IMG/VR virus record: IMGVR_UViG_3300024051_000004
Span: 1-53,069 of that record
Origin: a virus
Lineage: Duplodnaviria > Caudoviricetes
Reading direction: 5' to 3' (one strand)
Length of the DNA: 53,069 nucleotides
The notes under the pieces were generated by a model that did not search any database, was not told the origin of the DNA, and worked only from the letters and a program-made list of their open reading frames with translations. Made by a program: the position numbers and the translations under genes. Shown here in pieces: positions 16,200-45,377 of this stretch. The stretch's first letter is position 1; each line of letters opens with the position of its first letter.

Positions 16200-16210
16200 G
16201 GTGTTCCTCC

Positions 16211-16564: not shown

Positions 16565-16567
16565 GGG

Positions 16568-19227: not shown

Positions 19228-20820
19228 TCAGGTCTCCGGTTCAGGGTCCTCGTCGTCACCGACGAGCCCGACCGGGTCAGCCCCACGCCGGAACGCGTCC
19301 GCTGCGGCCTGACCCGCGGACGTGAGCGGGTCAACCCAATGCCCGTCCTCGTCGAAGAAGTCCTCGAGGATCTCGTCGATGTCCTTCACCCCGAACGCCC
19401 GCAGCAGCAGCTTCACGGTCTCCTCCGGGGGGAACTTCCCGGTGCCGTCCGCTGCGACGAGCGCGTTCACGAGGACACCAATGTCGACGTCGTCGAAGTC
19501 CGGCCAGGTGATCTCCACGGTCGCGTCCGTGTCCTGTGCAAGGACGAGGGTTTCACGACCGGTTGCCTTGTCTCGCGGCAGGGTGCCCTTCAACGGGCCC
19601 TGCGGGGCACGCACCGCTTCACGGATCACGTAGTCGAGGACACGGGTCAGGGTCGCCGCCCACAGGGTGCGACGCCCACCCATCTCCAGCTTGGTGGGCT
19701 GGTCGAGGGTCTCCGCGGTCGCGCGGGCACCGGTCGTTCCCGGGTCCGCGAGGAGCATCGTGACGGGGACACCGAGGGCGGCGGCGATCATCGCGGCGAG
19801 TGGCCGCCCCGACTCGGAGTCGATCGTCGCACCGGACTTCGACACGGCTTCCAGCTTCGTGGACTCGTCGAGGACGACGGTCCCGCCCACGTTGTTCGGG
19901 TTCGCAGCCGGGGGCGTGCCCGCGGGGCGGCGGGTCAGGGCCTGCCGCATCTTCTGGGTGCGGGACCCCTTCCCGGTGGCCCGCCACGCGATCTGCGACA
20001 GGGACTTGATGAGCGTCGCCCAGTCGACCAGGAAGTCGCGGTACAGGCGGGCGAACACGACCGCCGCATACGCGTCACCGATGCCGAACTGCCACCCGTC
20101 GATCCGGTTCACGGACACGTGCACTACGGGCGAGTCCCACAGGATGGGTGCCCCGTCGAGAGTCTTCGGGCGGGCGGCAGGCCGGTACCCGACCGCCGGG
20201 TAGTAGGCGACACGCGACTCGGTGCGGGTACTCATCGTCGACATGTCCACAGCCCGTTGTGACCACTGCCGCCGGTAGAACCACGGGTCGTCCCGGTCGT
20301 CCGGGTTACAGATCACGTCCGTGATCTCGTCGAACGGCAACGACCGGACCTGCACGAACCCTGTGCGAGGGTTCGTGAAGCACGCGAGGAACACGTTCCC
20401 GTCCGTCCCGAGCGCCCGTTCAAGCTCCTCCCGGGCCTGCGCACCCGTGAACGCCGCCAGGTTCCCCGGGTCGTCGAGGAATGCCTGCACGACCGCGTTC
20501 ACGTCCTGCGCACCGTCGTTCCCGTCCGCACGCGCCTGGACCTGCACACCCTGACCCCACACGTACGAGTGCCGCAGGACCAGGCCCCGCTTGATCAGCG
20601 GGTGCGCCACCGACAGAACTCGGGCTACCTTCGCGGCCCGAGCCAACCCGTCTCGGGAGAACTCCGTCTCCCCGGCGCCGACGAGCCGATCCCACCCCTG
20701 GTCCTCGAGCGCAAGCTCCAGGTCCGCGATGCCTTCCTGCAGCAGTTCGATCGACGACTCTGCGGCACGGGCGCGGGCGACGGTCTCGGACAGCACACGG
20801 GCGCGGGTGAACAGACCCAC
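19228..20820 (-). CDS. Portal protein
   Basis: 530 aa directly after terminase; LGTDGNVF, LGVPVTMLLADP.ARATAETL. Confidence 0.85.
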   Translation of the reverse strand: MGLFTRARVLSETVARARAAESSIELLQEGIADLELALEDQGWDRLVGAGETEFSRDGLARAAKVARVLSVAHPLIKRGLVLRHSYVWGQGVQVQARADGNDGAQDVNAVVQAFLDDPGNLAAFTGAQAREELERALGTDGNVFLACFTNPRTGFVQVRSLPFDEITDVICNPDDRDDPWFYRRQWSQRAVDMSTMSTRTESRVAYYPAVGYRPAARPKTLDGAPILWDSPVVHVSVNRIDGWQFGIGDAYAAVVFARLYRDFLVDWATLIKSLSQIAWRATGKGSRTQKMRQALTRRPAGTPPAANPNNVGGTVVLDESTKLEAVSKSGATIDSESGRPLAAMIAAALGVPVTMLLADPGTTGARATAETLDQPTKLEMGGRRTLWAATLTRVLDYVIREAVRAPQGPLKGTLPRDKATGRETLVLAQDTDATVEITWPDFDDVDIGVLVNALVAADGTGKFPPEETVKLLLRAFGVKDIDEILEDFFDEDGHWVDPLTSAGQAAADAFRRGADPVGLVGDDEDPEPET

Positions 20821-20836: not shown

Positions 20837-22366
20837 TCAGTAGCCGCCGGCCCAGTCGTGCGGGTCGTCGTCGATGAGGTCGTCCCCGACGATGAGGTCG
20901 TCGTCAGGCAGGGGGTTCAGCAGGATCCGGTTCAGGGCTTGCGACATGGCGTCGATCGTGTCGTCGTGGGCGCCGTTCGGGAACGACTTCGCTTCCTCGA
21001 TGAGTTCTTCGACGTTCGGCAGGAGGTCCGCGGTCGGCAGGTGCACGTTCCCGGAGTGTGTGAACGGGGACACGGCGGCGGCGCGCGCGAACTTCGACCC
21101 TTCGGGTTCGACGGGGATCAGGCCGGGGATCTGCCGGGCGAGCGCGTTGATGACGGCGGGCCCGTTCGCCTTGTCCTCGACGAACTTCGCGGCAGCTTGC
21201 GGCCACCTTGCGGTCAGGGCCCGGATCGCATCCAACGTGGCGGTGAACGACAGGCGGGCGCGAACCTGGTCGACCAGGTACGCGTCGACCCCGAACCTCG
21301 CCCACACCTGACCGACGACGTAATCGGACGACTTCGTGTCCTTGAACGTCAGGTCCCACGACTGCACGAGCTCGAAGTCATGCCCGGGGAGGGTGCGGGT
21401 CCCGTCCGGGTGCTGCACCCACAGGGGTTGTTCGTACCGGGTCCACGTGTCGGGGAACAGGCCCCCGGACTCGGGTGACGGGTGGCCTTGGTACAGGGCG
21501 TTCCACACGCGGGGCCCGACTTCACGGCGGGTCTGTTCCCACTGTGCGGCGGTGCGTTGCTCCCCGGTGCGTTCGTCGCGGCGGGCGGAGTCCATCCACT
21601 GGCCGGGTTCGCGGCCGAGCGGGTCGACCTCGCCACGGTCGGGGCGGTGGTCCGCTTGGGCGGGGATGTTGATGACCCGCCACCGGTGCCCTTCTTCGGA
21701 GGCGAGTAGCCGCCCAGCAAGGTCGTCGTGATGCCACCGGGTCAGGATCACGATGACGGGGGCGCCGGGGGCGAGGCGGGTGCGGGCGACGGACGTCCAG
21801 AACGACCATGCACGGTCCCGGTACGTCTGCGACTCAGCCTGCTCCATGTTCGAGATCGGGTCGTCGATGAACATGACGTCCGCGGGGCGACCGGTGAGAC
21901 CACCGGCGATACCGACGGATCGGACCCCACCGATCCCGATGTCGCGTCGCAGCTTCCATGACGTGACCGCACCGTTGTCCTCTGCGATGCGCAGACCGAG
22001 GTCGAGGGTGCCGTCCTGCCCGGAGTTCGCTGTGATGTACCCGCGGATGTCGCGGCCGAACTCCATGGCGAGGGACTCGGCGTAGGACGCGACGACGACG
22101 CGACGGTTCGGGTTCCGCAGGAGGAACCACAGGGGCCCGGTCTTCGTGACCCGGGTGGACTTTCCTTCCTGTGGCGGCATGGAGATGATCAGCCGGTCAC
22201 AGTCCCCGTTGTCGACGTCGACGAGGGCTTGGTCGATGACGTCGAGTGCGGCGGTCTGGATCGTGCCGGGTTCGATGGCCTTCGCGAGGACCCCGGGTGT
22301 GGGCCATGGGTCGCGTCTCGGTTCGAACGCTCGGGCGACGTGTTCCAACCAGGGTTCGACGGTCAT
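20837..22366 (-). CDS. terL: Terminase large subunit
   Basis: Walker A MPPQEGKS, Walker B FIDDP, TRWHHDDLAG, nuclease SWD...FPNGAHDDTIDA. Confidence 0.95.
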   Translation of the reverse strand: MTVEPWLEHVARAFEPRRDPWPTPGVLAKAIEPGTIQTAALDVIDQALVDVDNGDCDRLIISMPPQEGKSTRVTKTGPLWFLLRNPNRRVVVASYAESLAMEFGRDIRGYITANSGQDGTLDLGLRIAEDNGAVTSWKLRRDIGIGGVRSVGIAGGLTGRPADVMFIDDPISNMEQAESQTYRDRAWSFWTSVARTRLAPGAPVIVILTRWHHDDLAGRLLASEEGHRWRVINIPAQADHRPDRGEVDPLGREPGQWMDSARRDERTGEQRTAAQWEQTRREVGPRVWNALYQGHPSPESGGLFPDTWTRYEQPLWVQHPDGTRTLPGHDFELVQSWDLTFKDTKSSDYVVGQVWARFGVDAYLVDQVRARLSFTATLDAIRALTARWPQAAAKFVEDKANGPAVINALARQIPGLIPVEPEGSKFARAAAVSPFTHSGNVHLPTADLLPNVEELIEEAKSFPNGAHDDTIDAMSQALNRILLNPLPDDDLIVGDDLIDDDPHDWAGGY

Positions 22367-22388
22367 CCGTCTCACCCCGCTCGTAGGG

Positions 22389-22628
22389 TCAGCCGGTGGG
22401 TCCGGTTCGGGCGGGGAGGGGTGCACCGCACGGGCAGCGTTTCGCCCATCCGGGGATGGGGTTGCGGCATGCGGGGCAGCGGATCCGGTCGCACCGGTGG
22501 CAGGTGTGGATGATGACGGGTGCCGTGGTGTGGGTGGTGAGGAGGGCTTGCCGGTCGCAGTCTTGCCCGCAGAGCCCGCATGGGGTGCGGTCCTCGTAGA
22601 CACGCTCGGGCAGGGGTGGGGTGCGCAT
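22389..22628 (-). CDS. Small multi-CxxC zinc-finger protein
   Basis: 79 aa with CGLC, CHRC, CPAC, CPC. Confidence 0.6.
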   Translation of the reverse strand: MRTPPLPERVYEDRTPCGLCGQDCDRQALLTTHTTAPVIIHTCHRCDRIRCPACRNPIPGWAKRCPCGAPLPARTGPTG

Positions 22629-22728
22629 GGTGCGGTCACCCCGCTTCACGGTGGTCCCGTCGTGTGTGCGGCTCGCAGGCCAGCGGTGGTGGTGTTGGCG
22701 CCTGGTCCAGGCACGCCACGACGGGGGT

Positions 22729-23541: not shown

Positions 23542-24537
23542 TCACGCCCCACGCCCGACACGGTCCGCGATGTCCCCCAACCGGAACAAGTCCCGACCAC
23601 GCGCATCCTGCCCCCGCACCACCAACACCCCCCGATGCACCCACTGCCGCAACGTCGCCGCCTGCACCCCCCGCGGTTTGAACACCCGCCGCGCGTCCTC
23701 CAACGTGACAAGCTCGTCCGGGTGCGTCACCGGCAACGCCTGATGCGCCTCCAGGATCGCCAACATGAACCGGCCCTCCGACTCCCATGTGATCCCGCAC
23801 CGGTCGCACCGGTGGGTGTCCGTCAACCCCCGGTCAGTCCACTGCCGGTGCACGGTCCCCCCGTCGTACGGGCAGGGGACAGCAGCACGGACGGGCCCTT
23901 GGGCGGCACCCGTGAGGGTCCGCAGGCGTGCCCGCAGCACAGCCAGGTCGGTCAGGAAGTCACCCCACGTGGCGGAGTGCTGTGCAGCCCACTGGACGTG
24001 CACCACCAGGTAGGTGGTGGCGGCATCCACACCGGTGACCGTCGCCGCATGCTGATGCTGCTCCTGCCGCCACGCGTCCTCCCAGAACGTGAGGACCGCA
24101 AGGATGGACGGCGGGTCACGGCGTTCCGCATCGAGGAGCGCCGGGTCGATCGTCGTCTCCCGGCGACCAAGCCTGGTCTTGTCCGCGGTCCCCCCCGCAG
24201 CCATCACGAACGCGTCACCCCCGACGATCTGCGTGTCGTCACCACGAGTGCCGCCAGTGCGGTCGTAGCGGATGGCGTGCAGGCCCGCAGCCGCGGCGAT
24301 CACGTCGGGGAGCTGCCGGTACAGGTCCCGCACCCCACGCAGGTCGTTGCGGGCCCGGGACACGCACGGTTCGCAGGTGCGGCCGACGGTCTCGAGCACC
24401 CGCCCGCATGGTTCGGTGCCGCCGCCGCGGCGCACCGGTGACTGGCATGCGGTGGCGGTCGCGGGGCATTCCGGGGTGTCGCACGTGTACGTCACGTAAT
24501 CGTCGGTCACCCACTGGTGACGGTGCAGGGTCGTCAT
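23542..24537 (-). CDS. Zn-binding + C-terminal HTH regulator (putative late activator)
   Basis: Several Cys pairs (CEPC, CDRC); LVTLEDA...VQAATLRQWVHRG...LFRLGDI MerR/Xis-type HTH; position before packaging genes. Confidence 0.7.
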   Translation of the reverse strand: MTTLHRHQWVTDDYVTYTCDTPECPATATACQSPVRRGGGTEPCGRVLETVGRTCEPCVSRARNDLRGVRDLYRQLPDVIAAAAGLHAIRYDRTGGTRGDDTQIVGGDAFVMAAGGTADKTRLGRRETTIDPALLDAERRDPPSILAVLTFWEDAWRQEQHQHAATVTGVDAATTYLVVHVQWAAQHSATWGDFLTDLAVLRARLRTLTGAAQGPVRAAVPCPYDGGTVHRQWTDRGLTDTHRCDRCGITWESEGRFMLAILEAHQALPVTHPDELVTLEDARRVFKPRGVQAATLRQWVHRGVLVVRGQDARGRDLFRLGDIADRVGRGA

Positions 24538-25316
24538 GGGCGGACCTCTCCGTGTGGGCGGTGCGACGTCAGCGACGGGAAGTAGTGGTCCTCCCACCCG
24601 TCCATGTCCTGCCCGTACACCACAGACCGGGCGGGTGCCTTCGACCGCAGCGGATGCACCCGCAACCACCGGTGGTCCATGACCCCGCCGTACGTTGCGG
24701 CGTATGCGGGGTGCACTGGCAGGTCGTGTGCATGCAGGTACGCGAACACCTGCACCGCGGACCATCGGCCGATCGGCCGGCATGTGCGTGCCGTCGTGGT
24801 CCCACGGTGGCCGATGCTCATGGCACGGACTCGTGACTCCTCGCCGCGGACCCCGGAGATGTACGGGCTGGTGATGTTCTCAGCGAGGACGTCCTGCGAC
24901 CGGTACCCGGGCTGGTCGAACTGTGCCGGGTCGTACCCGGGGTCCCCCCGCTTCGGGTTCCGTGCGACCGCGGGTCGTTCCTCGTACACGACACCGGGGT
25001 GTGCGGCGAGGAACGCGTCCCGCACGTCGTACGTCGCGGCCGCCTCGTAGCTGGTCCCGTCGCTGCGGATCGTGGGCACCCACACGATCGGGGTGGACGG
25101 GTTCGCGAGCCATGTCAGGTGGGCGACGACGACGGAGTCCTTCCCCCATGACGTCGAGCACACCGCGTCAGGGTGAGCCGCCACGAACGTGCGGATCTCC
25201 GCGACGGCACGGTCGGCGACCCCGTGCACGGACGCCCCCATGCGCCGGTGATACCGGGCGGCGTCTCCCCATGCGGCCAAGTCCTGGTCGGTCAGGGTCG
25301 GCATGTCGATCAGCAC
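24534..25316 (-). CDS. cysH: CysH-like PAPS reductase family protein (type IV-B associated)
   Basis: PP-loop STSWGKDS, ISGVRGEES..R, CRPIGRWS..QVFAYL..HDLPVHPAY. Confidence 0.85.
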   Translation of the reverse strand: MLIDMPTLTDQDLAAWGDAARYHRRMGASVHGVADRAVAEIRTFVAAHPDAVCSTSWGKDSVVVAHLTWLANPSTPIVWVPTIRSDGTSYEAAATYDVRDAFLAAHPGVVYEERPAVARNPKRGDPGYDPAQFDQPGYRSQDVLAENITSPYISGVRGEESRVRAMSIGHRGTTTARTCRPIGRWSAVQVFAYLHAHDLPVHPAYAATYGGVMDHRWLRVHPLRSKAPARSVVYGQDMDGWEDHYFPSLTSHRPHGEVRP

Positions 25317-26224
25317 CCCTGGGCCTCCTGTGCGGCACGCCGCCGGTCGCCCTTGACGAACGTCAGGACGTACTGGTGTCGGCGGGTCGTGGTGCGGCAC
25401 GCCTCCCACGGAGGTCGGGTCGTCTTCGCACGCAACCCGGCCGGTTCGACGAGGACCTGTTCGTTCACGAGTCGCGCCCCGGCCGTCTCGAACGCCTCGA
25501 TAGCGTGGTGCGGCAGGTGCCGCAGGTGTCCGTGGTGGTCCCGCACGTCAGAGATCACCCATGTGGCGAACCGGTCGGGTCGAAGGCATCGGACCGCCTC
25601 ACGGATGATCGCGGCGTGCACGGTCAGGAACCCGGGCCATGTCATCGCGGACAGGTCCCGCGGGTCGTCGGAGTACCGTTCCCGGTTCCAGTACGGCGGG
25701 CAGGACAGCACGTAGTCGACGCTGCCGTCCGGGATGGTGTCGAGCTCGGTCGCCGCGTCCCCGTTGACCCACCGTGGCGGGCGCGGCAGGTCCCATCGGG
25801 TCGCGACGGCATCGTTCGCGGCGACCTGCGTGGGGGACAGTTCGATACCGGTGTACGCCCGGCCCAGGGCGGCGGCGACGATCCCCCGTACCGGGCCACC
25901 GGCGAGGGGATCGAGAACCGCCCCCGCGGGCGGGCAGAACCAGGTGTAGGCGAGCTCAGCGAGGACAGGGTCGAACCGGGACACGCCGCCACTGGTGCGA
26001 CCGTGCCGACCGGTCGCGATCATCGCACCACGGCCCGCACGCGGGGTGAGGTCATCGACACCCTGCTCGTCCCACCATCCCTTGCGGGCCCGCCACGCCG
26101 GGGTCGACTGGTCCAGGACGGACCACGGCCAGATGCCGTGCACGTCCAACGGCGCGTACACCGACGGGTCGTCGGGGTGCCACACCCCACGCCCGTCACG
26201 GGTGCCGTGGGCGATGGTGGTCAT
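25310..26224 (-). CDS. SAM-dependent amino (m6A/m4C) DNA methyltransferase
   Basis: SRFDPVLAE, motif I VLDPLAGGPVRG, YTGIEL, motif IV SCPPY, ERYSDDPRDLS. Confidence 0.85.
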   Translation of the reverse strand: MTTIAHGTRDGRGVWHPDDPSVYAPLDVHGIWPWSVLDQSTPAWRARKGWWDEQGVDDLTPRAGRGAMIATGRHGRTSGGVSRFDPVLAELAYTWFCPPAGAVLDPLAGGPVRGIVAAALGRAYTGIELSPTQVAANDAVATRWDLPRPPRWVNGDAATELDTIPDGSVDYVLSCPPYWNRERYSDDPRDLSAMTWPGFLTVHAAIIREAVRCLRPDRFATWVISDVRDHHGHLRHLPHHAIEAFETAGARLVNEQVLVEPAGLRAKTTRPPWEACRTTTRRHQYVLTFVKGDRRRAAQEAQGC

Positions 26225-26844
26225 GCGGGGACCGTGACCTTCCGGGACGGGTGCCAGTACGGGGCCCGGAACGCACCCGTGGCCCCGGGGGTCGGCATGG
26301 GGCGGTCACGCCACCCGTCGGGGTTCGGGTCGTCCTGCACCACCCACCGGGTGACGTGCCCGTGCCCGATGTTCGCGTGCTTCCCGACGTGCGTGACGAC
26401 CGACAGGAGCGTCTCCAGTCGGGTCCGGTCCGTCGCGAGGACATGCCACGTCATGGTGTCGACGAGGACCGCGGCGACGGTCGTGTCCCGCGCCTTGTAC
26501 GGGCCGAGACCCGTGTGGTGGCGTCGGTCCTGCGTGAACCGGGCCATCGGGCCCGTCGCGGGCTTGCGACGCAACTCGACCGCCGTCCACGACCGCACGT
26601 GCACGGCCGCCTGGGATGTGCACCACCCCCACGTGCCGTGCGCCTCCCACCGCACCAACGGCAGGTCCATGTCCATGACCAGGTCCCGTGTCATCGACGG
26701 CAGTCCCGACCCGTCGCGTTGCGCCAGGGCCGCGGCCGCCCACGACAGGGGCGCGTCCAGCATGACCGGCACCTCGACGACCCCGACCGCGGGCGTGTCG
26801 AGGTGCGCGGTCACGACCAGCGGTGTGCCCAGTGGTGCGCCCAT
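26221..26844 (-). CDS. csf3: Type IV Cas5-group RAMP (Csf3)
   Basis: LVVTAHL, LDAPL, LPL, GPYK, G-rich loop VGKHANIGHGHV, C-terminal RAPYWHP. Confidence 0.85.
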   Translation of the reverse strand: MGAPLGTPLVVTAHLDTPAVGVVEVPVMLDAPLSWAAAALAQRDGSGLPSMTRDLVMDMDLPLVRWEAHGTWGWCTSQAAVHVRSWTAVELRRKPATGPMARFTQDRRHHTGLGPYKARDTTVAAVLVDTMTWHVLATDRTRLETLLSVVTHVGKHANIGHGHVTRWVVQDDPNPDGWRDRPMPTPGATGAFRAPYWHPSRKVTVPA

Positions 26845-26847
26845 CGG

Positions 26848-27726
26848 TCAGGCCGCGAGGTCAGCCAGGAGCGTCAGGATCGCGTCCCGCTCGTGCGCGA
26901 TGTGCCCCGTCCACTCGACGAGCTGGTCGTTCACGGTCGCCCAGTCCACCCCGGTGACCGTCGCCGCCCCGTACCCGAGGGCGGACTTCGCGCCGAGCCG
27001 CACGATCCCGTCCGGCGCCCACAGGGCGAGCGCGGCACCGAGCGCGACCCGGTGCCCTTCGGTCGCGGCCGGCGTCAGGCTGACCGTGCCGTACAGGACC
27101 GTACCCGCCTTCAGCGCCTGCACGTCGTAGATCATCTGCGTGCCGGTGACCTGCTGGGCTGCGTCGACGAACCGGGCGACGGGGGTCGACGTGATGTCGT
27201 GTCGGGTGCCGAACTCCTCCGTCCGGTACGCGGCGACACCCTGCTGTGCGTGCGGCAGGGCCTGCAGGTCCGCGGGTAGCCGCCACGCGTTCTCCCGGGC
27301 GACGACCTCCAGGTCCGACACCCGCAGGGTTCCGGCGACGATGTCGGACTTCGCGGCGTACCCGAGGAGGCCGAGCGCGGGGAACACGTCGTCGACCCGT
27401 CGGGCGATGTCCAGGTCGACCTGTGCGCCCGTGGCGGTGACGGCGCCACCGGACCACAGCAGGTCGACGACGCCCTTTGCGAGGGACCCGTCGGGGATGT
27501 TCAGCTCGCGGGCGGCGTGCCAGGCGAGCGCGTCCCGCAGGCCGTGCCGCACGGAGTTCGCGGAGACGAACGGGACACGGGTGTGCGTGCCGTCGGGCAG
27601 GGTGATCTCGTGGGTGCGCAGCAGGGCCGTGTTCCCGGACGTGCCGGCCCCGTGGTGCAGGGGTGCGGTGAGGGTGATCGTGAGGGTCGTGGTGTCCACG
27701 GTCGGGGTGATGGTCGTGGTGGTCAT
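26848..27726 (-). CDS. csf2: Type IV Cas7-group backbone (Csf2)
   Basis: TAPLHHG, VPFVSANSVRHGLR, LWSGG, PALGLLG, GTLRV, TRHD, QMIY, LGAKSALGYG. Confidence 0.9.
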   Translation of the reverse strand: MTTTTITPTVDTTTLTITLTAPLHHGAGTSGNTALLRTHEITLPDGTHTRVPFVSANSVRHGLRDALAWHAARELNIPDGSLAKGVVDLLWSGGAVTATGAQVDLDIARRVDDVFPALGLLGYAAKSDIVAGTLRVSDLEVVARENAWRLPADLQALPHAQQGVAAYRTEEFGTRHDITSTPVARFVDAAQQVTGTQMIYDVQALKAGTVLYGTVSLTPAATEGHRVALGAALALWAPDGIVRLGAKSALGYGAATVTGVDWATVNDQLVEWTGHIAHERDAILTLLADLAA

Positions 27727-28106
27727 CAGAACGTCGCCTCCGGGGTCGTCGTGGTGGTGGTCTTGCGGGTCTGCCGTTCGACGTCCGCGAGGGCGACGAT
27801 GTACACGATGTTCCGGTCGACGTGCGCCGCCCACGCCTGGTAGTCGCGGTCGATGACCGCGGCGACAGCCTTCACGGTCGCCGCGTGCCGGGTCGTGATC
27901 TGCGGGATCTGCAGTTTGCGGGCTGCGGTCGTGATCGCCGCGGCCGCGGTGTCCGCACCGGCGGCGGCGGTCGTCAGGGCGGTGGCGGCGCGGCCCCCGG
28001 TCCAGAACTCGAGCCGGGACGGGCCGTCGTCGGTGAGGGAGTCACGCAGTGCGAAGATCAGGTCGATCGTCGCCCGGTCGTACTCCTCGGTGGTGGGTGT
28101 GGTCAC
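27726..28106 (-). CDS. cas11: Type IV-B small subunit (Cas11-like)
   Basis: 126 aa all-helical protein between csf1 and csf2, overlapping both. Confidence 0.65.
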   Translation of the reverse strand: MTTPTTEEYDRATIDLIFALRDSLTDDGPSRLEFWTGGRAATALTTAAAGADTAAAAITTAARKLQIPQITTRHAATVKAVAAVIDRDYQAWAAHVDRNIVYIVALADVERQTRKTTTTTTPEATF

Positions 28107-28837
28107 TGCAGGTGTCCCTTCGTGATGGTCCACAGCGCGAGGCTGAGGAGCGGGGATCCGAGCCACGCGGTGAGCTCGGCGTTGTGCGTCGACCACTGGT
28201 GCAGGTCGTCGCGGGTCTTCAGGTAGCGGGGGGTGCCGTGCATGACGTCGTCGGCGGGGATGCCGAGGCGTCGCAGGGCGGTCGCGTGGGTGTGGACGTG
28301 CGCCCATTCGTCGGGGGTGGCGGTGACGGTGGTGGTCTCCATGCGGACTACCCACCGGCCGGGTCCGTCGTTGAGGTGCCCGTACGGCAGGACATGCTTC
28401 TGCCCGGACGTTGCGATGGTCACGGTCCACGGCCCGTCGGGTGGGGTGGTGAGGGTGTGCGCGACGAGCGTGCCGGTGTCGTCGCCGCGGGCGCCGAGGT
28501 ACAGGCCGGGCCGGTCCTGCAGGAACGCCTTGGGGTTCGACGCGGGTACCGACCGGTCGGGGGTTGCGACGATCGACCACATGCGCAGGGTCGCGGGGGG
28601 CTTCCCAGAGCAGCACCACAGGCATGCGGGGCACACCCGGTCGGACGACGGGTCACGGAACAGGGACCGGTCGGTGAAGTTCGCGCCCAACGCCCTGTTG
28701 ACGTCTGCGGTGCGGGGGACGGTGCGGGTGCAGATCGCACACACCCCGGCATAGTCCTTGACGAGTGCGGCGATGGTGGGGATCGGATCGGGTTCCCCGG
28801 CGAGATGCCACACGGTCACGGTGGGGGCGGTGCTCAT
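28103..28837 (-). CDS. csf1: Type IV large subunit (Csf1/Cas8-like)
   Basis: CAIC...NFTD...VCPAC Zn finger, PP..PW, SGQKHVLP. Confidence 0.8.
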   Translation of the reverse strand: MSTAPTVTVWHLAGEPDPIPTIAALVKDYAGVCAICTRTVPRTADVNRALGANFTDRSLFRDPSSDRVCPACLWCCSGKPPATLRMWSIVATPDRSVPASNPKAFLQDRPGLYLGARGDDTGTLVAHTLTTPPDGPWTVTIATSGQKHVLPYGHLNDGPGRWVVRMETTTVTATPDEWAHVHTHATALRRLGIPADDVMHGTPRYLKTRDDLHQWSTHNAELTAWLGSPLLSLALWTITKGHLQ

Positions 28838-29415
28838 GATGCGGCCCCGACGAGGAGGAGGCCGGCCCCGTACGCCTTCGCTGGGCCGACGCCGTCGCGG
28901 ATGAGACGTTCGAGGGTGTCGGGGTTGGTGACGGTGCCGGTGGCGTAGAACGCGCTGAGCCGGTGGGTGACGGTGGCTTCGTGTCGTGCACCGGTGCGGG
29001 TGCCGAGGGGTTGCACGGCGACGTCGTGGAGGGTGACGGCCCCGTCGAGCTTGCGTCGCAACCAGTCGGCGTGCTGGTCGATCGGCAGGGGGATGCGTCG
29101 ACCACGGACCCCGCGGGGGGTGGGGGTGAGGGTGACGGGGTTGCCGATGAGGGAAATGCGTACGGGGGTCCCGGACGCCCATCGGGGGCGGGCGGGACCG
29201 GAGTGGGATTCGACGACTCCGCCGATCGCAGCCGCCCGGATGGGTGCCCCGGCTTGCACGATGACGATGTCTCGGGTGGGGTTCGCCCACAGGACCCGGC
29301 CGGGGTTGTCGACGTCGAGCGCGTGCAGGATCGTGCGGTGCAGGGTTTGCGTGTCGCGGGGTGCGCTGTGGTGCGCGAACCGTAGTTCGGTCAGGTGCAG
29401 GGTGGGTTGGGTCAT
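28834..29415 (-). CDS. cas6e: Cas6e (Cse3/CasE-like) crRNA-processing RAMP
   Basis: LHRTI, RVLW, VIVQ, L.GNPV, RRIPL, WL.RK, G-rich loop GVGPAKAYGAGLL. Confidence 0.85.
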   Translation of the reverse strand: MTQPTLHLTELRFAHHSAPRDTQTLHRTILHALDVDNPGRVLWANPTRDIVIVQAGAPIRAAAIGGVVESHSGPARPRWASGTPVRISLIGNPVTLTPTPRGVRGRRIPLPIDQHADWLRRKLDGAVTLHDVAVQPLGTRTGARHEATVTHRLSAFYATGTVTNPDTLERLIRDGVGPAKAYGAGLLLVGAAS

Positions 29416-29741
29416 GCGTCGCCTCGCAGTGGGGTGAACGTGTACCGGAACGCGGTGATGTCGTCACGCCACCCGCAGTGTTCGCATTCCGTCCCGATGT
29501 TCGGGTCGTCGAACGACCGGTCGACCCGGTACCCGTCGCATGCGGTGAACCGGTCGGTGCTGCCGCAGCGGGGGCAGGTGGCGGCGACCCACCATGCGGC
29601 GGGCCCGGTGTCGGGGTGTCCGAGGTATGTGCGCCCGCCGTCGGTGAACTCGTCGATGCCGTGGCCTTCGTCTTCGCAGGGCAGGGCGGGGGTGAAGTCG
29701 AGGTCGGTGAGGACGTCCGGCAGGGTGATCGGGGCGGTCAC
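29412..29741 (-). CDS. Zn-finger hypothetical protein coupled to cas6e
   Basis: CPRC and CEHC motifs; ATGA overlap with cas6e. Confidence 0.6.
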   Translation of the reverse strand: MTAPITLPDVLTDLDFTPALPCEDEGHGIDEFTDGGRTYLGHPDTGPAAWWVAATCPRCGSTDRFTACDGYRVDRSFDDPNIGTECEHCGWRDDITAFRYTFTPLRGDA

Positions 29742-29938
29742 TGTCCACGCACCTCCGTCGTCGTGGTCGTCGTGGTGGTGATCGGGTCGGAGCCGTCTCC
29801 GGCGAAGCCCCACCCGAGGGCCGTGGTGGGGGACCGGTGCCCGTAGTGCTGGTTCCGCCACGCCCGCAGGACTCTGGTCGCGGTGGCGTCGTCCGTGATG
29901 ACGAGCGTCGCCCCGCACGGGCAGGTTTCGCGGATCAC
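29738..29938 (-). CDS. Small hypothetical (CPCG...W...H)
   Basis: GTGA overlaps on both sides. Confidence 0.5.
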   Translation of the reverse strand: MIRETCPCGATLVITDDATATRVLRAWRNQHYGHRSPTTALGWGFAGDGSDPITTTTTTTTEVRGQ

Positions 29939-30060
29939 TGCTCGTCCTCCGTCCATTCGATGTTGACCCGGTCGGTCCAGGTCATGGTGTTGTGCTCGAG
30001 GCGGGCGAGGAGCAGGGCCCGCTGGTCGCCGGTCGGGTCGTTGACGGGGCGGGTGCTCAC
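29935..30060 (-). CDS. Small hypothetical
   Basis: 41 aa, coupled overlaps. Confidence 0.45.
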   Translation of the reverse strand: MSTRPVNDPTGDQRALLLARLEHNTMTWTDRVNIEWTEDEQ

Positions 30061-30197
30061 GGGATTCCCCGGCGGGCGGGGGTGACGTCGATGGCCTCGT
30101 GTGCACCGTCGGGGCCGATCCCGACGGGCACACCGGTGCCGTTGTCGACGATGAAGTCGATGTCCCCGGGGATGAGCCACACGCGTGTGACGGCCAT
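30057..30197 (-). CDS. Small hypothetical
   Basis: 46 aa, coupled overlaps. Confidence 0.45.
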   Translation of the reverse strand: MAVTRVWLIPGDIDFIVDNGTGVPVGIGPDGAHEAIDVTPARRGIP

Positions 30198-31893: not shown

Positions 31894-33219
31894 TCAACGG
31901 TCATGCCATGACGGTTCACGGTCCTGCACCGGAACAGGCGCAGGACGCCACTGGCGGGGCGTCATCTCTGAGAACGCACCACCACGAGTGAGTTCCACCA
32001 CCCCGCACTGTCCCTGCCGGTTCTTCGCTACGAGCATGTCCAACGCTGTCTCGTCGTCGTCATGCTCGTGCAACAGCAACACAACGTCACTGTCCTGTTC
32101 CACAGCTCCCGACTCGCGAAGGTCAGCCATTGATGGTCGCTTGTCCTGCCGCTGCTCGGGTCCACGGTTCAACTGTGACAACGCAATCACCGGGACCTGC
32201 AATTCCTTCGCGAGGAGCTTCAGCCCGCGTGAAAACTCCCCAACGACCTCTGCACGATTCCGCTTTTCCATGCCACGCGGGGCTGTCATCAACTGCAAAT
32301 AGTCGACGACGATGCCAGCCAACGGGCGCCGGTGCGCGACCGTCCGCGCGAACGCCCGGATCCCTGCCGGGGTCAACGACGACCGGTCGTCGATCGCGAT
32401 CGGCAACGATGCGAGCTCGGCCCGGTGTCGGGCGATCCGCGCCCAGTCCTCGTCGGTCAGGTCGTGTGCGTCGATCCGGTTCCCGGGAACCCGGGCGAGG
32501 TGCGCGAGGATCCGCTGCTCGACCTCGACCCGCGGCATCTCCAACGATGCGATCACCACAGCCCCGTGCTGTGCCAGGTGCACCGCGGCCTGCACCCCGA
32601 CGATCGACTTCCCGACCGCAGGTCGTGCCCCCACCACGTACAGGGCGCCGGGACGCCACACCCGGATCAGTCGGTTCAGGTCCGGCCACGGTGTCGGGTA
32701 CCCGGTCGGTTCCGTCTCGAGCGCTTCGAGGGTCGTGTCGATCGTGTCCCCGATGAACCCTGTCGACACGGCTGCGGTGCCGGTTGCGACCGCATCGACC
32801 TCCGCCCGGCACGTCTCGACGAGTGCTGTCACGTCCCCCTCGCCGGCTTGTGCGAGTTGGGTGATGCGGGTCCCGGCGGCGGCGAGACGCCGCAGCACGG
32901 CCTGTTCGTGCACGATTCGTGCGTAGAACTGGGCGTTGGTGGTGGTGACGACACCGTTGATGAGCTGGTGCAGGTACGGCAGCCCGCCGATGGTTGCGAG
33001 TTCCCCGGTGCGGGTCAGGTGGTTCCCGACGGTGATCGCGTCGACGGCGTCCCCGGTGCGGTGCAGCTGCAGGATCGCCGCCCAGATGATCGTGTGCTTC
33101 GGTGCGTACAGGTCGTCGGGGGTGATGACGTCTGCGACGTCGTCGATGCCGGTGGGGCGCAGGAGGCACGCACCGAGCATCTGCGTCTCGGCTTCCCGGT
33201 GGTCGATGATCGCGTTCAC
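31894..33219 (-). CDS. dnaB: Replicative DNA helicase
   Basis: GARPAVGKS, SLEM, VVDYLQLM, LSQLNR, DLRESGAVEQDSD, AKNRQG. Confidence 0.95.
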   Translation of the reverse strand: MNAIIDHREAETQMLGACLLRPTGIDDVADVITPDDLYAPKHTIIWAAILQLHRTGDAVDAITVGNHLTRTGELATIGGLPYLHQLINGVVTTTNAQFYARIVHEQAVLRRLAAAGTRITQLAQAGEGDVTALVETCRAEVDAVATGTAAVSTGFIGDTIDTTLEALETEPTGYPTPWPDLNRLIRVWRPGALYVVGARPAVGKSIVGVQAAVHLAQHGAVVIASLEMPRVEVEQRILAHLARVPGNRIDAHDLTDEDWARIARHRAELASLPIAIDDRSSLTPAGIRAFARTVAHRRPLAGIVVDYLQLMTAPRGMEKRNRAEVVGEFSRGLKLLAKELQVPVIALSQLNRGPEQRQDKRPSMADLRESGAVEQDSDVVLLLHEHDDDETALDMLVAKNRQGQCGVVELTRGGAFSEMTPRQWRPAPVPVQDREPSWHDR

Positions 33220-34037
33220 TGGCCGTCACCACCGCCACGGCGGGGTGCGTACCGGTCCCACGGTGACGTGGTCGGTGCGGTGGCGGGCGCCCCGGTGCGG
33301 GGGTCCGTGCGGGGCGGCAACGGTTCGTCGTCCCACCGGCCTGCGTTCAACCATGTGGCGGGGTGCGGGATGAACTCCTTGGCGGGCAGGTTCGGGTCTG
33401 CGGCGAACCGGTGGGCGCCTGCCGTGATCGTGTCGTGCCCGACCCTGCGGGCCGCCTTGTCGAACGCACGCCGGGCGGCGTCCTTCCCGACCTTCCGCGG
33501 GTACGCCGACCAGAACGTGTCGAACGCACCCGTGGGCACACGGACCGTCGCCGGCGCAGCCGGTGACGAAGAGTCTTTCTCCTCTGTTCCTCTGTTCCCC
33601 TGTTCCCCTGTTCCATGCCGGAGGGTTCCGGGAGGGTTCCGGGAGGGTTCCGGGAGTGGCGCGCCGATGATGGAGTCCCGAAAGTTCATTGTGCCGTCTG
33701 GCCTGGGGAAACGTCCGCGGGTCGGCTTCTCGATGCGTTGGATCGACTCCCAGAACGCGATGTACAGGAGTCGGTTCCCGTCGGCCTCGTATCGCCACAG
33801 GAGACCAGCGTCGGAGAGCGCGTTGAGGGCTTCCGCAACCTTCCGGAGGGTTCCGGGAGGGTTCCGGGAAAGGTCCCGGGGGAACACGTCTGCGACGATG
33901 AGCGGCAGGTCGTCCTTCCCGACCCCGTTGTCGTCGACGAACGACTCGAGGCCCTTCAGGACGAGCCGCGCGTCCCAGTCGACGGACGCGACACGGGCGG
34001 ACCGCCAGAACTCTGGCTTGGTGCTGCGGATGCGCAT
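33216..34037 (-). CDS. Phage replication initiator
   Basis: MRIRSTKPEFW...DDNG N-terminus; FDTFWSAYPRKVGK...HPATWLNAGRWDDE C-terminus; coupled to dnaB. Confidence 0.85.
   Translation of the reverse strand: MRIRSTKPEFWRSARVASVDWDARLVLKGLESFVDDNGVGKDDLPLIVADVFPRDLSRNPPGTLRKVAEALNALSDAGLLWRYEADGNRLLYIAFWESIQRIEKPTRGRFPRPDGTMNFRDSIIGAPLPEPSRNPPGTLRHGTGEQGNRGTEEKDSSSPAAPATVRVPTGAFDTFWSAYPRKVGKDAARRAFDKAARRVGHDTITAGAHRFAADPNLPAKEFIPHPATWLNAGRWDDEPLPPRTDPRTGAPATAPTTSPWDRYAPRRGGGDGQ
33584..33866. repeat. Iteron-like repeats inside initiator gene (putative origin)
   Basis: GGAGGGTTCCG x3 at 33620-33652 and x2 at 33845-33866; CTGTTCC x4 with 8-nt period at 33584-33614. Confidence 0.7.
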
Positions 34038-34327
34038 CAGGATCGCCCACCGGCCCGATCGTGCAGGTCGAGGCATGCGGTGAGCTCGTCGATGACCTGG
34101 CGTGCGTTGCGGGCGGCCTGGTCGGCGGCGTGCAGGGCTGTCTCGATGCGGACCCGCCCAACCGTGTCGGACCGGTACAGGGGGGTGGCGAGCGACCCGA
34201 GCGCCGTCAGGGTTGCCGCGCATGCGTTGCGTGCCGCCGCCCAGTGGGTCTGGAACTCACGGTTCGCGACGTCGAACGGGACGACGACGGGTGTCGGGGG
34301 TGGGTCGGGGACGACATGCAGGGTCAT
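34037..34327 (-). CDS. Hypothetical protein
   Basis: Coupled overlaps with neighbours. Confidence 0.5.
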   Translation of the reverse strand: MTLHVVPDPPPTPVVVPFDVANREFQTHWAAARNACAATLTALGSLATPLYRSDTVGRVRIETALHAADQAARNARQVIDELTACLDLHDRAGGRS

Positions 34328-36106: not shown

Positions 36107-36420
36107 CGTCCTCCTGACTTCTGGCTGGCACGGTGCAGGGCTGCGCACATCCCGCACCTCGTGCCGCGTTGCGTGCTAATGCGGCGTGCCGCTGACGCCG
36201 GGTGCCCGCACGGCAGCAGGCCGCCGCGGCCGGGGTCGACCCGCCCGCCGGGCAGGCCGATCACCCCGAGCAGGTCGACTGCGTCGGCGGGGCTGGTGGC
36301 GTGCGCGCACACCACGAGGGACACGTGCCGGGTCACGGCAGGGTCCAGTGCGGGGATCGGTTCGTCGGAGTCGACGAGGAGCCGGTGGGCGAGCAACCGG
36401 TGCGCACTGGTCGCGGTCAT
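36103..36420 (-). CDS. Hypothetical protein
   Basis: Coupled overlaps; CGH...CGMC. Confidence 0.5.
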   Translation of the reverse strand: MTATSAHRLLAHRLLVDSDEPIPALDPAVTRHVSLVVCAHATSPADAVDLLGVIGLPGGRVDPGRGGLLPCGHPASAARRISTQRGTRCGMCAALHRASQKSGGR

Positions 36421-38078
36421 GCCGCCACCTCCCCGGTGATCGCCTCGACGACCGTCGCGATCAGGTCACGCGCGGCGGGTGGGGTGACCGCGTTCCCGCT
36501 GAGCTTGACCTGCTCCCGGCGGGTCCCGAGCATCACGTAGTCACCCGGGAACGCCATGGCCCGCTTGATCTCGCCCGGTTCGAGCATCCGGAACCGCACG
36601 TCGTCGATGTCGAGCGTCGGCGGGCCAGACAGGTACGCCTGGTGCCCGACAGTGGTGACGGTCCGAACAGGCTCGGTGACGGGAGTGGTCATGGACGACT
36701 GGTCTTCGCCGCGTTGGGTGTTCATCCGCATGACCAGGCCGTGGTGCGTGCCCGAGGCGGTGACCGTGGACAGCGGGTCCGTGGTCGACCTGGCCGTAGA
36801 CCCGCCGCCGCGAAGCTCTGCGATGAACGGCGGGTAGAGCATCCCGTGGCCGCCACCGCCGGCGGTCGTCATCGTCGGGCCCGGCTCGTCGACGGGCCGG
36901 GCGCGGTTGCCCCATGTGTTCGTCATGACCAGGGGGGGCAGCATGACGCCCTCTTCGTGACGGGCGGTCTGGGTGCGCATCGGGTCCAGGGACGAGCGCA
37001 CCCGACCGTCACCGTCGCGCCCTGACGTGTCCACCAGGGCGGGCGGCAGCACGAGCCCCTTGGATTCGCCCGTGTGCTGCGTGCGCACCGGCTCGAGACT
37101 CGACCACGCCCGCCAGTACGACTCCGGGTCCATGAACCCGGGATGCTTCGGGTCGGCAGCGTCCCACCCGTTGACCGTCTCCACGAGCAGCGGGTGCCAG
37201 AACCGGCGCACCCCGTGCTCGATGCGCCGCATCGTCTTGGCCGACAGGGGCTTGGCCCGGTCCCCGATCCTGGTTCCCGTGTTCGACAGGTCGATGAACG
37301 ACAGGGCAGGCAACCACCCGGGTTCGACGATCTGCCCGCGACACGACACCTTCGGGCACCGGTACACGTACTGCGCCCGGTACCGACCCGTGACGCTGGA
37401 CGCCTTCTTCCAGGACTGCACCGCATCGACAAGCTCGCCGCACGACGGGCACCACGCGCGAGGCCGCTGCATCCGCTCGAAGTCCGGGGCCCGCTCACCC
37501 TCACGCCAGAACGCGATGTACACCCGGTCCCGGGACTGCGGTGCGGGCAGACCGTACGCCTGCGCGTGCATCGAGTTCAGGGAGATGATCCGGTGCCGGT
37601 ACCGCATGGCGTGCATCGACTGCAACCACGCCTCGAACAGTGCACCCGGGTACCCGTTCGGGGACGTCCAGTCGACGACCTCGACGACGTTCTCCACGAG
37701 GATCGCCCGGTACTCGTGCGCCTCCGCGAACCGCACGACGTCCCACATCGTCGCCCGGGACCGTTCCGCCGCAGCATCCGGCAGGGTCTCCCCGAACAGG
37801 TCCGGCTGCCGGGCCTGCTTACGGCCCTTCGCCCGCGAGTGGTTCGTGCACTCCGGGGACGCCCACAGCAGGTCCGTGCCCGGGATGAACCGCGGGTCGG
37901 TCTGCGAGATGTCCGCCTGCAGGTGGTCAGTGTTCGGGTGGTTCGCGTTGTGCGTCTCGATCGCCCGATCCCAGTGGTTCGCGGCGAGACGAACCTGCAC
38001 CCCCCCGGTTGCGACCGCACCCGTGGACGACCCGCCAGCACCGCAGAACAGGTCCGTCATCGTGAGGTTCGCACTCAC
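36417..38078 (-). CDS. C5-cytosine DNA methyltransferase
   Basis: DLFCGAGG, SPEC catalytic motif, VENV, PQSRDR, GNAV. Confidence 0.93.
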   Translation of the reverse strand: MSANLTMTDLFCGAGGSSTGAVATGGVQVRLAANHWDRAIETHNANHPNTDHLQADISQTDPRFIPGTDLLWASPECTNHSRAKGRKQARQPDLFGETLPDAAAERSRATMWDVVRFAEAHEYRAILVENVVEVVDWTSPNGYPGALFEAWLQSMHAMRYRHRIISLNSMHAQAYGLPAPQSRDRVYIAFWREGERAPDFERMQRPRAWCPSCGELVDAVQSWKKASSVTGRYRAQYVYRCPKVSCRGQIVEPGWLPALSFIDLSNTGTRIGDRAKPLSAKTMRRIEHGVRRFWHPLLVETVNGWDAADPKHPGFMDPESYWRAWSSLEPVRTQHTGESKGLVLPPALVDTSGRDGDGRVRSSLDPMRTQTARHEEGVMLPPLVMTNTWGNRARPVDEPGPTMTTAGGGGHGMLYPPFIAELRGGGSTARSTTDPLSTVTASGTHHGLVMRMNTQRGEDQSSMTTPVTEPVRTVTTVGHQAYLSGPPTLDIDDVRFRMLEPGEIKRAMAFPGDYVMLGTRREQVKLSGNAVTPPAARDLIATVVEAITGEVAA

Positions 38079-38884
38079 CGCGCACCGCCACCGTTGCGGC
38101 CGACACCCCATGCGATCAGCCCGACCAGCATGGTGATCACCGCGGCAAGAAACAGGACCGCACCGTCGACGCCGGTGGCGGCAAGCTCAGGGGCGCCGGT
38201 CAGGGTTGGTGTCGGGGTGGGGTTCGCGGTCGACAGGACCTGGGACGGGATCACCGGTGATGGCGAGGCCGATGACGCGGCGGACGCCGACGTCGGGTTC
38301 GGGGCCGGGATCGGGGATGGGACCGAGGATGGTGTTGGGGTCGAACTCGTCGACGGGGATGATGCGGACGGCGCCGGGACGGGCGGCGTGGTGTCGGCCT
38401 CGGAACCGGGCGAGGGTGAGGCGGTGGGAGAGCTCGTCGGCGTGGACGAGGCCGTCGACTCCGGGGTCGGCGTGGCGGTAGGGGTCGGGGCGGGGGTCGT
38501 CGGGCATGGGTGCGGCTCCTTCGTGTGGTGCGGCGTGTGCAGGCAGACGGGCTTCTGACCGCCCTCCCCGAAGTGCTCGGACGCGCCCGACCACTGGACC
38601 CACACGACGCACCCGTCGGTGATCCCGAACGCCGACCACGGGACGAAGCTCTGACCGACCCAGGACGCGCCCGGGTGGCCGTTGTTCGGGTCGATGTGCA
38701 GGCCGTGCGTCACCCCGTCCGCGGTGCGGACGTTGATGTGCGAGTGCGCATGCAGCGGCGACGGGAACGTCAGGCCGTCGCGGCTGACGGTGTACGGGGT
38801 CGGGTCACCGGACCCGGTGCCCCATGCGGGGGCCGCGAACATCACGGCGACGGCCACTACGGTGGCGACGATGAGACGCCTCAT
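38075..38884 (-). CDS. Secreted, sortase-anchored (LAxTG) surface protein
   Basis: Signal peptide MRRLIVATVVAVAVMFAAPAWG; P/T/S linker; ELAATG + TM + basic tail. Confidence 0.8.
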   Translation of the reverse strand: MRRLIVATVVAVAVMFAAPAWGTGSGDPTPYTVSRDGLTFPSPLHAHSHINVRTADGVTHGLHIDPNNGHPGASWVGQSFVPWSAFGITDGCVVWVQWSGASEHFGEGGQKPVCLHTPHHTKEPHPCPTTPAPTPTATPTPESTASSTPTSSPTASPSPGSEADTTPPVPAPSASSPSTSSTPTPSSVPSPIPAPNPTSASAASSASPSPVIPSQVLSTANPTPTPTLTGAPELAATGVDGAVLFLAAVITMLVGLIAWGVGRNGGGAR

Positions 38885-38970: not shown

Positions 38971-39171
38971 TCAGGTGGTGCGGGTCAGGAGCCGCATGCG
39001 CGCGGTCTCCTCGTCCCGGTCGGCTTGCTGTCGGGCCTGCCGGTTCGCGACCCTGTGCGCGGACGCGATCGCACGGGTCCACGTGCCGCGACGCCACACG
39101 ACGGGCCGATGGGTGTCCGTCGACGTGAACACGACGCACCACACCCCGTCGACCTTCGACACCCGGATCAC
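38971..39171 (-). CDS. Hypothetical protein
   Basis: GTGA-coupled to methyltransferase. Confidence 0.5.
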   Translation of the reverse strand: MIRVSKVDGVWCVVFTSTDTHRPVVWRRGTWTRAIASAHRVANRQARQQADRDEETARMRLLTRTT

Positions 39172-45114: not shown

Positions 45115-45149
45115 CGCACTGCCTTCCTCGTCCGTGGTGTTGATGCTGG

Positions 45150-45377
45150 TCATGCCGGTTCGCCCGTCTCGTCGACACCCCAGTCGACGTGCATGTCCCG
45201 GTCGTTCACCGTCAGGTGTTCGAGCGTGTCCGCGGCCCGGTCGGCTTCTGCAGCGGTGACCCGCATCCCGGCCGCTGCGGCCTCGCGGGCTTCGTGACGG
45301 AGCATCGCGACGAGGACCAGCCGCGCATGCGTGAGCGTCACCATGACGGGCGCGATGGTGGTGTCGGCGGTGGTCAT
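45150..45377 (-). CDS. Hypothetical protein
   Basis: GGAGG RBS, ATGA overlap. Confidence 0.55.
   Translation of the reverse strand: MTTADTTIAPVMVTLTHARLVLVAMLRHEAREAAAAGMRVTAAEADRAADTLEHLTVNDRDMHVDWGVDETGEPA

Follow-up and report, generated by a model that had tools for sequence, protein, structure and literature searches.

Why should a phage carry, at the head of a set of csf genes, an endoribonuclease of the kind that matures guide RNAs for bacterial type I-E CRISPR systems? The question is raised by the gene cas6e (28834..29415, minus strand; Cas6e/Cse3 family, PF08798) in the viral record IMGVR_UViG_3300024051_000004, a 53,069-bp linear contig with an estimated completeness of 75% and approximately 70% G+C, the whole of which we refer to as the window. 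An initial annotation of this DNA proposed that the phage enzyme processes the CRISPR RNA (crRNA) precursors of a host type I-E system and loads the products onto a nuclease-free Csf filament, either sequestering the guides or reusing host spacers against competing elements. Here we show that relatives of this operon lie in actinobacterial genomes that usually encode type I-E, and that many host spacers match the resident csf prophage. We consider the chances evenly balanced that I-E-type repeat RNA is the substrate of the phage Cas6e, and that the enzyme loads a Csf complex devoid of nuclease, which would neutralize host I-E immunity. The broader proposal, that type IV-B with Cas6e in temperate actinophages is a protein-based anti-CRISPR that captures I-E guides and disarms or silences Cascade-Cas3, is offered more tentatively, as a serious possibility that falls somewhat short of an even chance.

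The phage Cas6e protein

The 193-residue product of cas6e matches Pfam PF08798 CRISPR_assoc (Cas6e/Cse3) over residues 10-189 with an E-value of 6e-18 (66.3 bits; cut-off 25), and it matches the solved E. coli CasE chains with E-values of 9e-5 (single-sequence query) and 3e-14 (profile query); Thermus Cse3 is also among the structure matches of the profile. On the stricter I-E equivalog, NCBIfam casE_Cse3 (TIGR01907), it scores 26.9 bits, under the cut-off of 45.2. Histidine 26 of the N-terminal LHRTI motif is invariant in 13/13 members of the csf-linked clade described below, and in the profile alignment it coincides with the histidines of MHRTL in Thermus Cse3 and LHQGL in E. coli CasE, which we take to be the catalytic residues. 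The C-terminal G-rich loop is likewise invariant across 13/13 clade members and aligns to the corresponding motif of solved CasE/Cse3. The initial annotation had described a compact Cas6e-like protein with just these two motifs, and both parts of that description are confirmed. The window open reading frame (ORF) is a real member of the Cas6e family and probably an active enzyme, and we propose that it would cut the hairpins of I-E repeats and remain attached to them.

The phage protein resembles the Cas6e of type I-E systems (CasE/Cse3; 4qyz, 2y8w) in fold family, in the position of the catalytic histidine, in the G-rich loop and, in the predicted complex discussed below, in its docking of a Cas7 loop. 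It is unlike them in being shorter (∼190 amino acids), in reaching 27 bits on the I-E equivalog, in belonging to a separate long-branch clade, and in a predicted partnership with Csf proteins rather than Cascade.

A Cas6e-bearing variant of type IV-B

The gene lies in an eight-ORF minus-strand operon, throughout which neighbouring start and stop codons abut or overlap, in the order Zn-ribbon, cas6e, csf1, cas11-like, csf2, csf3, DNA methylase, cysH-like. The ATGA coupling of cas6e to csf1 stated in the initial annotation is seen directly in the sequence, and the downstream ORF (csf1; 28103..28837, minus strand), which would encode a Cas8-like small version of the large subunit with Cys clusters, matches TIGR03114 with an E-value of 2e-7, below the cut-off; it has 43-55% identity to the ORF following cas6e in all relatives. 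The adjoining cas11-like ORF (27726..28106, minus strand) is a putative small subunit by position and size, and no match was found to it in family profile searches; relatives keep an ORF between csf1 and csf2 with 31-71% identity to it. The Cas7 backbone subunit gene csf2 (26848..27726, minus strand) matches PF03787 RAMPs (E 4e-6) and, below cut-off, TIGR03115 (E 1.4e-5), with 44-69% identity among relatives, and csf3 (Cas5; 26221..26844, minus strand) matches TIGR03116 with an E-value of 1e-19 (71 bits, below the cut-off of 140). The Csf subunit names therefore rest on sub-cut-off model matches together with the gene order, which, like the coupling, is conserved.

Two further genes complete the downstream part of the operon. 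An N6/N4 DNA methyltransferase gene (25310..26224, minus strand; PF01555, E 1.7e-7), the start of which overlaps the csf3 stop, is in the cassette of many relatives, not all, and a cysH-like gene (24534..25313, minus strand; PF01507, E 4.4e-10) encodes a product of the phosphoadenosine phosphosulfate (PAPS)-reductase fold and is the hallmark gene of type IV-B. At the other end, a Zn-ribbon-like ORF (29412..29918, minus strand; start uncertain) contains CxxC pairs with sub-threshold zinc-ribbon matches, and its stop overlaps the cas6e start, again as ATGA; by tblastn it matches at the window's own locus alone and is not conserved in relatives.

Subtype IV-B is defined by csf1-cas11-csf2-csf3 with cysH and without an array (PMC7038947, PMC8175902), and one example is the megaplasmid system of Mycobacterium sp. 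JS623 (PMC7937560, PMC8175902). The window cassette shares with it the gene order (on the subunit assignments above), the cysH-like gene, the lack of array, adaptation genes and nuclease, and a location on a mobile element of Actinobacteria. Canonical IV-B has no Cas6, except for '12 instances' noted in PMC7038947, and because cas6e heads the operon we classify the window cassette, by its gene content, as a Cas6e-bearing variant of IV-B and not as a canonical member. It further differs from canonical IV-B in the frequent presence of the DNA methylase and in being phage-borne. The label 'orphan' that the initial annotation gave to Cas6e is misleading, since the protein is consistently part of a conserved type IV-B cassette that also contains cysH.

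There are also similarities to type IV-A, especially IV-A3 with its I-E-like repeat and Cas6 (PMC7038947, PMC11519345), in the combination of a Cas6-type RNase with a Csf effector; the proposed interference without a nuclease, and cross-talk with the host's I-E system, would be further points of likeness. Unlike IV-A, which is distinguished by DinG and its own array, the window cassette has neither, and it has Cas11 and cysH. No DinG helicase was found near the cassette, the sole nearby helicase being a SNF2/DEAD-like protein encoded 10 kb away, and the cassette contains no nuclease gene.

Relatives of the cassette and the ancestry of its Cas6e

Protein searches returned few close homologues, six proteins, the nearest with 66% identity, and a single-protein scan of viral contigs gave no match. 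Profile scans place the cassette in Nocardia, Corynebacterium, Cutibacterium, Phytoactinopolyspora, Brevibacterium, Scrofimicrobium, a Frankia symbiont, and a metagenome-assembled genome (MAG) of the Pseudonocardiaceae. In all 12 of the 12 actinobacterial genome loci returned by the Csf2 profile cas6e adjoins csf1, and cysH is present in every genome locus long enough to show it. Among 27 viral loci returned by the same profile, 23 have cas6e and 25 have cysH; of the four without cas6e, one begins at csf1 where its contig ends, and the other three are distant loci in which the gene is not seen. A tree of 85 Cas6e proteins, from which identical copies and ORFs outside 150-300 amino acids were left out, groups all csf-linked sequences (14/14) in one long-stemmed clade with a Shimodaira-Hasegawa-like approximate likelihood ratio (SH-aLRT) support of 100, apart from the casE genes of the hosts. 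We take this topology as a sign that Cas6e was captured once, long ago, and not borrowed recently.

No CRISPR array was found within ∼10 kb on either side of the cassette in any relative locus (genomes and loci are designated below by G and L numbers). L005 and L073 have hairpin repeats ∼5 kb downstream of cas6e; these were considered and rejected as CRISPR on account of their irregular spacing, and we read them as iterons: at L005:15031-15140 and L073:15082-15190, three to five short palindromic repeats follow a helix-turn-helix gene and are succeeded by a conserved stretch, an origin-iteron-like arrangement. Array-like k-mers in L163, L166, L175 and L185 were rejected as 15-nt coding repeats of pentapeptide-repeat genes, and those at the start of L183, a locus of a related viral contig, as a 12-nt coding repeat that is also present in the window.

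Co-occurrence with host type I-E

Taking a TIGR01907 match above cut-off as the criterion for canonical casE, we find this gene away from the csf locus in 11/12 carrier genomes (4/4 and 7/8 in two sets). By the same criterion the base rate of I-E is 80/201 in sampled Corynebacterium genomes and 26/301 in genomes of the class, and within the 201-genome Corynebacterium sample four genomes are csf2-positive, all four of which are I-E-positive. An I-E array lies beside canonical casE in 11 of 12 loci (one per carrier genome), the remaining locus being a contig of 4.2 kb. G003 has a full I-E operon, from cas3 through cas2, and long cas3 frames occur in 9/12 carriers; of the other three, G005 has a divergent frame. 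The premise of the initial annotation that hosts have I-E thus receives strong, though indirect, support from the carriers of relatives. Cas6e-bearing carriers show the opposite trend to the negative correlation with I-E reported for IV-B as a whole (PMC7038947), and in co-occurring with host I-E they are unlike that larger group.

These frequencies bear on the proposal that there is no link to I-E, in which Csf would bind non-CRISPR RNA and have a DNA- or RNA-modification role with cysH and the methylase; Cas6e would be an RNA-binding cap or a relic, the I-E co-occurrence a matter of host range, and any tolerance of the prophage the work of conventional anti-CRISPR proteins. The conserved partnership with cysH fits such a role, as do the position of the cassette among three methylase genes and the heterogeneous RNA bound by a canonical IV-B complex (PMC7937560). 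We nonetheless regard this proposal as improbable, because the catalytic histidine and G-rich loop are invariant (13/13) in a fast-evolving clade, cas6e is kept in nearly all loci, I-E is present in 11/12 carriers as against base rates of 40% and 9%, and a repeat-like hairpin stands beside cas6e in one relative.

Host spacers matching the resident prophage

The host arrays provide a second line of evidence. Of the 555 spacers in 11 of them, 122 have a match of four or fewer mismatches in the 60 kb surrounding the resident csf locus, and 61 of these are perfect; at least one self-target is present in 10/11 hosts and a perfect one in 9/11, with the highest proportions in G003 (30/99 spacers), G078 (30/75) and G174 (26/114). 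The upstream flank of the protospacer is AA in 80/122 cases and GA in 19/122 (G174 accounts for 17), a pattern that true I-E acquisition would be expected to leave. When whole genomes are searched, every spacer-length match outside the array falls within the ∼50-kb csf prophage block in G003 (32/32, a count that also excludes a 1-kb contig duplicating part of the array), in G078 (26/26), and in G174 (27/27, among the 40 of 71 candidates scored). Three I-E-positive but csf-negative Corynebacterium control genomes, with 214, 208 and 74 repeats and ∼490 spacers between them, yielded no perfect spacer-length match outside the array, with 40 candidates scored in two of the three; what they contain are insertion sequence-related 26-mers, long low-identity matches, and one 92% match beside the array. 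Copies of a 1.3-kb element break up the 214-repeat I-E array of one control, Corynebacterium G034 (L151:1000-18000); the element is found elsewhere in the genome too and is probably an insertion sequence.

Because perfect self-targets flanked by a protospacer-adjacent motif (PAM) coexist with an apparently intact I-E system, these data imply that I-E interference is blocked in the self-targeting lysogens. We infer that the csf cassette, rather than another prophage gene, causes this tolerance. The sequestering, or anti-CRISPR, alternative of the initial annotation gains strong, though indirect, support from the tolerance of spacers in relatives (122/555 against the resident prophage).

The second alternative in that annotation, spacer reuse, has Cas6e load host crRNAs onto Csf for use against rival phages and plasmids, providing superinfection exclusion without cutting, with the tolerance caused in some other way. 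It accounts equally for the I-E co-occurrence; ∼78% of host spacers (433/555) have no match in the resident prophage and might be aimed at other elements; and type IV-A systems are described as interfering without a nuclease through transcription repression (PMC11519345, PMC12669027). Yet it leaves unexplained why the resident prophage is the main self-target and survives, guides matching the phage's own DNA would silence the phage too, and there is no DinG-type helicase, only the distant SNF2-like one. We therefore think spacer reuse quite unlikely as the principal function, while noting that neither it nor the use of phage-borne guides, considered below, is exclusive of guide capture.

Predicted contact between Cas6e and Csf2

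Structure prediction of the window Csf2 and Cas6e together, with a custom clade alignment for each protein, gives an interaction prediction score from aligned errors (ipSAE) of 0.86 (runs 0.85-0.87), compared with 0.00 for the best control; the ipSAE mark employed is reached by 58/80 solved complexes and by 2/110 mismatched pairs. At least 76% of contacts are common to the runs, the predicted local distance difference test (pLDDT) value of the partner is 84 or higher, and the predicted interface on the Csf2 side comprises residues 182-196. The prediction supports binding of Csf2 by Cas6e, with the caveat that, Cas6e-Cas7 contacts being among the solved structures of Cascade, the high score may stem from resemblance to them and is not proof of binding.

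Phage-borne guides and CreR-like elements in relatives

A covariance model built from 17 actinobacterial host I-E repeats identifies clear mini-arrays in 2/11 resident prophage regions. That of the G003 prophage (L110:1788-1864, minus strand) consists of two repeat-like hairpins (31.3 and 15.3 bits), a 23-nt spacer and a terminator, and that of the G209 prophage (L143:3906-4059, plus strand) of three repeats, two spacers and a terminator; both are 26-30 kb from the csf operon, near an end of the prophage. The G003 host has a degenerate mini-array of its own (L089:4715-4830, minus strand), antisense between cas3 and cse1 and homologous to the phage mini-array, and the phage and host spacers match one AAC-flanked site 55-70 nt upstream of cse1. 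Counting consecutive paired positions with every sixth skipped, the host spacer pairs 13 and the phage spacer 14 at this site, and the next best site has 6. By this arrangement the G003 phage and host pair has the architecture of CreR autorepressors and viral Cracr mimics, the phage mini-array being the putative mimic of the host's CreR-like autorepressor. The G207 host also contains a degenerate mini-array upstream of cas3 (L138:1465-1559, minus strand), with an AAG-flanked partial target in the adjoining cas promoter region, and from their sequences both host elements look like CreR-type autorepressors in Actinobacteria.

Such elements are not widespread by the searches used. The repeat model gave weak matches only in the other prophage regions and no clear mini-array, again with weak matches only, in 25 viral records besides the G003 prophage copy, and a hairpin-plus-seed scan recovered G003 alone; short BLAST comparisons of host I-E loci with prophages missed even the known G003 pair and carry no weight. 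A target for the G209 spacers in the host I-E region was sought and the best site, which pairs 10 positions and has a non-AA flank, is unconvincing. In one provirus the cas6e start is immediately preceded by a solitary I-E-like repeat hairpin (L199:1501-1530, minus strand; same place in L165), and this repeat may be a self-processing or autoregulatory site.

The mini-arrays raise the alternative that Cas6e processes a phage-borne CreR mimic and that the Csf complex silences the host Cascade promoter, in the manner of CRISPR interference (CRISPRi); in the window phage, the mini-array would have to sit in the missing ∼25% of the genome. The 14-position pairing of the G003 phage spacer at an AAC-flanked site upstream of cse1, the homologous host element targeting the same site, and the three-repeat mini-array of G209 are all in its favor, and viral CreR mimics that silence I-E have been reported (bioRxiv 10.1101/2024.10.29.618823). 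We consider it unlikely all the same as a general account, with clear mini-arrays in only two of the 11 prophage regions and none of the 25 viral records, with G003 alone recovered by the hairpin scan, without a convincing target for the G209 spacers in their host I-E locus, and with no such element in the window. Moreover, the mimics of that preprint work through the host's own Cas proteins without requiring Csf, and the terms 'type IV' and 'Csf' occur zero times in it. The initial annotation had set a phage-encoded guide RNA in opposition to guide capture; such guides are present in at least two relatives (the G003 and G209 mini-arrays), and not in the window.

Search for an array or guide in the window

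The window contains no CRISPR array detectable by Tandem Repeats Finder (TRF), a repeat finder, a mini-array repeat-pair scan or Rfam. The initial annotation reported no I-E-like CCCCGC-loop-GCGGGG repeat, and this is correct: the pattern CCCCGC-N3-8-GCGGGG, for which 0.49 matches would be expected in the window, has 0. The covariance model gives weak matches only, all within coding sequence. Its top match (16004-16031, minus strand; 19.1 bits) is a hairpin with a 7-bp stem, a 4-nt loop and a 7-nt tail, and was rejected; it lies within the capsid/protease gene, on the sense strand. A capsid homologue is present in 1/10 related viral records (38% identity), too few to gauge conservation of the hairpin. 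Matches at 30159-30178 (plus strand) and 30113-30133 (minus strand) were rejected as lying inside small ORFs, as was a hairpin-pair candidate at 3207 (plus strand) in a coding region. A hairpin at ∼30059-30086 (minus strand) has 20/28 identities to one host repeat and was rejected as no better than other places, 20-21/28 identities to host repeats recurring at many positions of the window. No CreR-mimic (Cracr) type element was found in the window with the repeat model or hairpin scans.

A model for guide capture and the points against it

With host I-E arrays and occasional phage mini-arrays being the sole Cas6e-type substrates seen, capture of I-E RNA is the most economical model. In this model the phage Cas6e would bind and cut I-E repeat hairpins, chiefly those of host pre-crRNA and, in some relatives, also those of the phage-borne CreR-like mini-arrays, and would remain on the 3' hairpin. 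Contact with the Cas7 thumb would then seed assembly of Csf2, Csf3, Cas11 and Csf1 on that RNA, and the resulting nuclease-free complexes would divert guides from Cascade-Cas3; they may also occupy targets or the host cas promoter. The outcome would be a phage that persists as a prophage despite an I-E array full of matching spacers. Both the substrate of Cas6e and its loading onto Csf are deduced rather than observed steps of the scheme.

Several observations weigh against guide capture by the cassette. The host I-E evidence comes from the hosts of relatives and not from that of the window phage, and none of the 555 host spacers matches the window. The co-occurrence counts take one genome per species and otherwise ignore kinship, and for IV-B overall the reported correlation with I-E is negative (PMC7038947). 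The exception among the carriers, G005, has a divergent Cas6e (PF08798, 37 bits) near a 34-repeat I-E-like array, and in G007, a fragmentary MAG, no second casE was seen, only the truncated phage copy. There is no core match to cas3 in G004, and cas3 is split over two frames beside the G210 I-E locus; the gene may be lost or decaying in these hosts, and their tolerance needs no inhibitor because cas3 is not found or is split. As for the controls, 40 first-look candidates were scored in two of the three genomes, and all three may simply be without prophages. When a canonical IV-B complex was co-expressed with an I-E Cas6 and array, there was no crRNA enrichment (PMC7937560).

The tolerance could also be due to any other prophage gene. 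Pentapeptide-repeat genes are found in the csf prophages, two of which have anti-CRISPR-like RNAs as well. Long 15-nt coding repeats of pentapeptide type are present in csf prophages at L005:∼16150-16260, L007:∼16490-17010 and L008:∼5570-5800. Pentapeptide-repeat proteins can mimic DNA, and they are alternative candidates for defence inhibition in these prophages.

Other features of the window phage

By gene content the window phage reads as a siphovirus-like actinophage, with nearly all genes on the minus strand; megablast of the window against deposited phages gave no match. Recognizable genes include those for an endolysin (3889-4791), tape measure (8389-11169), capsid/protease (15144-16199), portal (19228-20820), large terminase (20837-22639), DnaB (31894-33219), a replication initiator (33216-34223) and RecT (46096-47196). 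Three DNA methyltransferase genes, two of N6/N4 type and one of C5 type, are all on the minus strand (25310-26224, 36417-38111 and 39168-40127), and their presence alongside the csf cassette suggests broad anti-restriction protection. The 12-nt coding repeat shared with the opening of L183 has ∼54 copies at 44212-44857, inside an ORF (43504-45564, minus strand) whose 686-residue product contains the resulting tetrapeptide-repeat stretch and belongs to no clear family. At 5576-5665 a 30-nt unit is present three times in tandem, two copies being identical and one at 83%.

Discussion

The csf phages invite comparison with RNA anti-CRISPRs, both Cracr (bioRxiv 10.1101/2024.10.29.618823) and the solitary-repeat Racrs (PMC10651486), in which CRISPR-derived phage elements disable host CRISPR. 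The corresponding parts here are the mini-arrays of two relatives and the solitary repeat by cas6e in one. RNA anti-CRISPRs hijack host Cas proteins, whereas the csf phages bring Cas6e and a whole effector, and, unlike Cracr and Racr, most members of the csf-cassette group show no RNA element. The idea of IV-B as a crRNA sponge is already in the literature; we found no report, supplements aside, that ties Cas6e-bearing IV-B to host I-E co-occurrence and prophage self-targeting. Some of these loci may already be listed in Supplementary Data S1 of PMC7038947 (12 IV-B loci with Cas6) or among the 219 candidates, partly from Actinomycetota, in Table S2 of the Cracr preprint.

The function of type IV-B and its RNA partner are long-standing questions, and the one biochemical study found no specific RNA (PMC7937560). 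The Cas6e clade together with the self-targeting lysogens makes the idea of crRNA capture and anti-CRISPR activity directly testable in culturable lysogens, for example those of Corynebacterium G003 and G078. Should the idea be wrong, the self-targeting lysogens still point to a new I-E inhibitor in csf prophages. If it is true, a whole CRISPR effector would have been turned against CRISPR, which would explain how a prophage persists in hosts with dozens of perfect PAM-flanked spacers against it; type IV-B would be linked to the CreR and Cracr regulatory RNAs, and would gain its first defined RNA source and a biological role.

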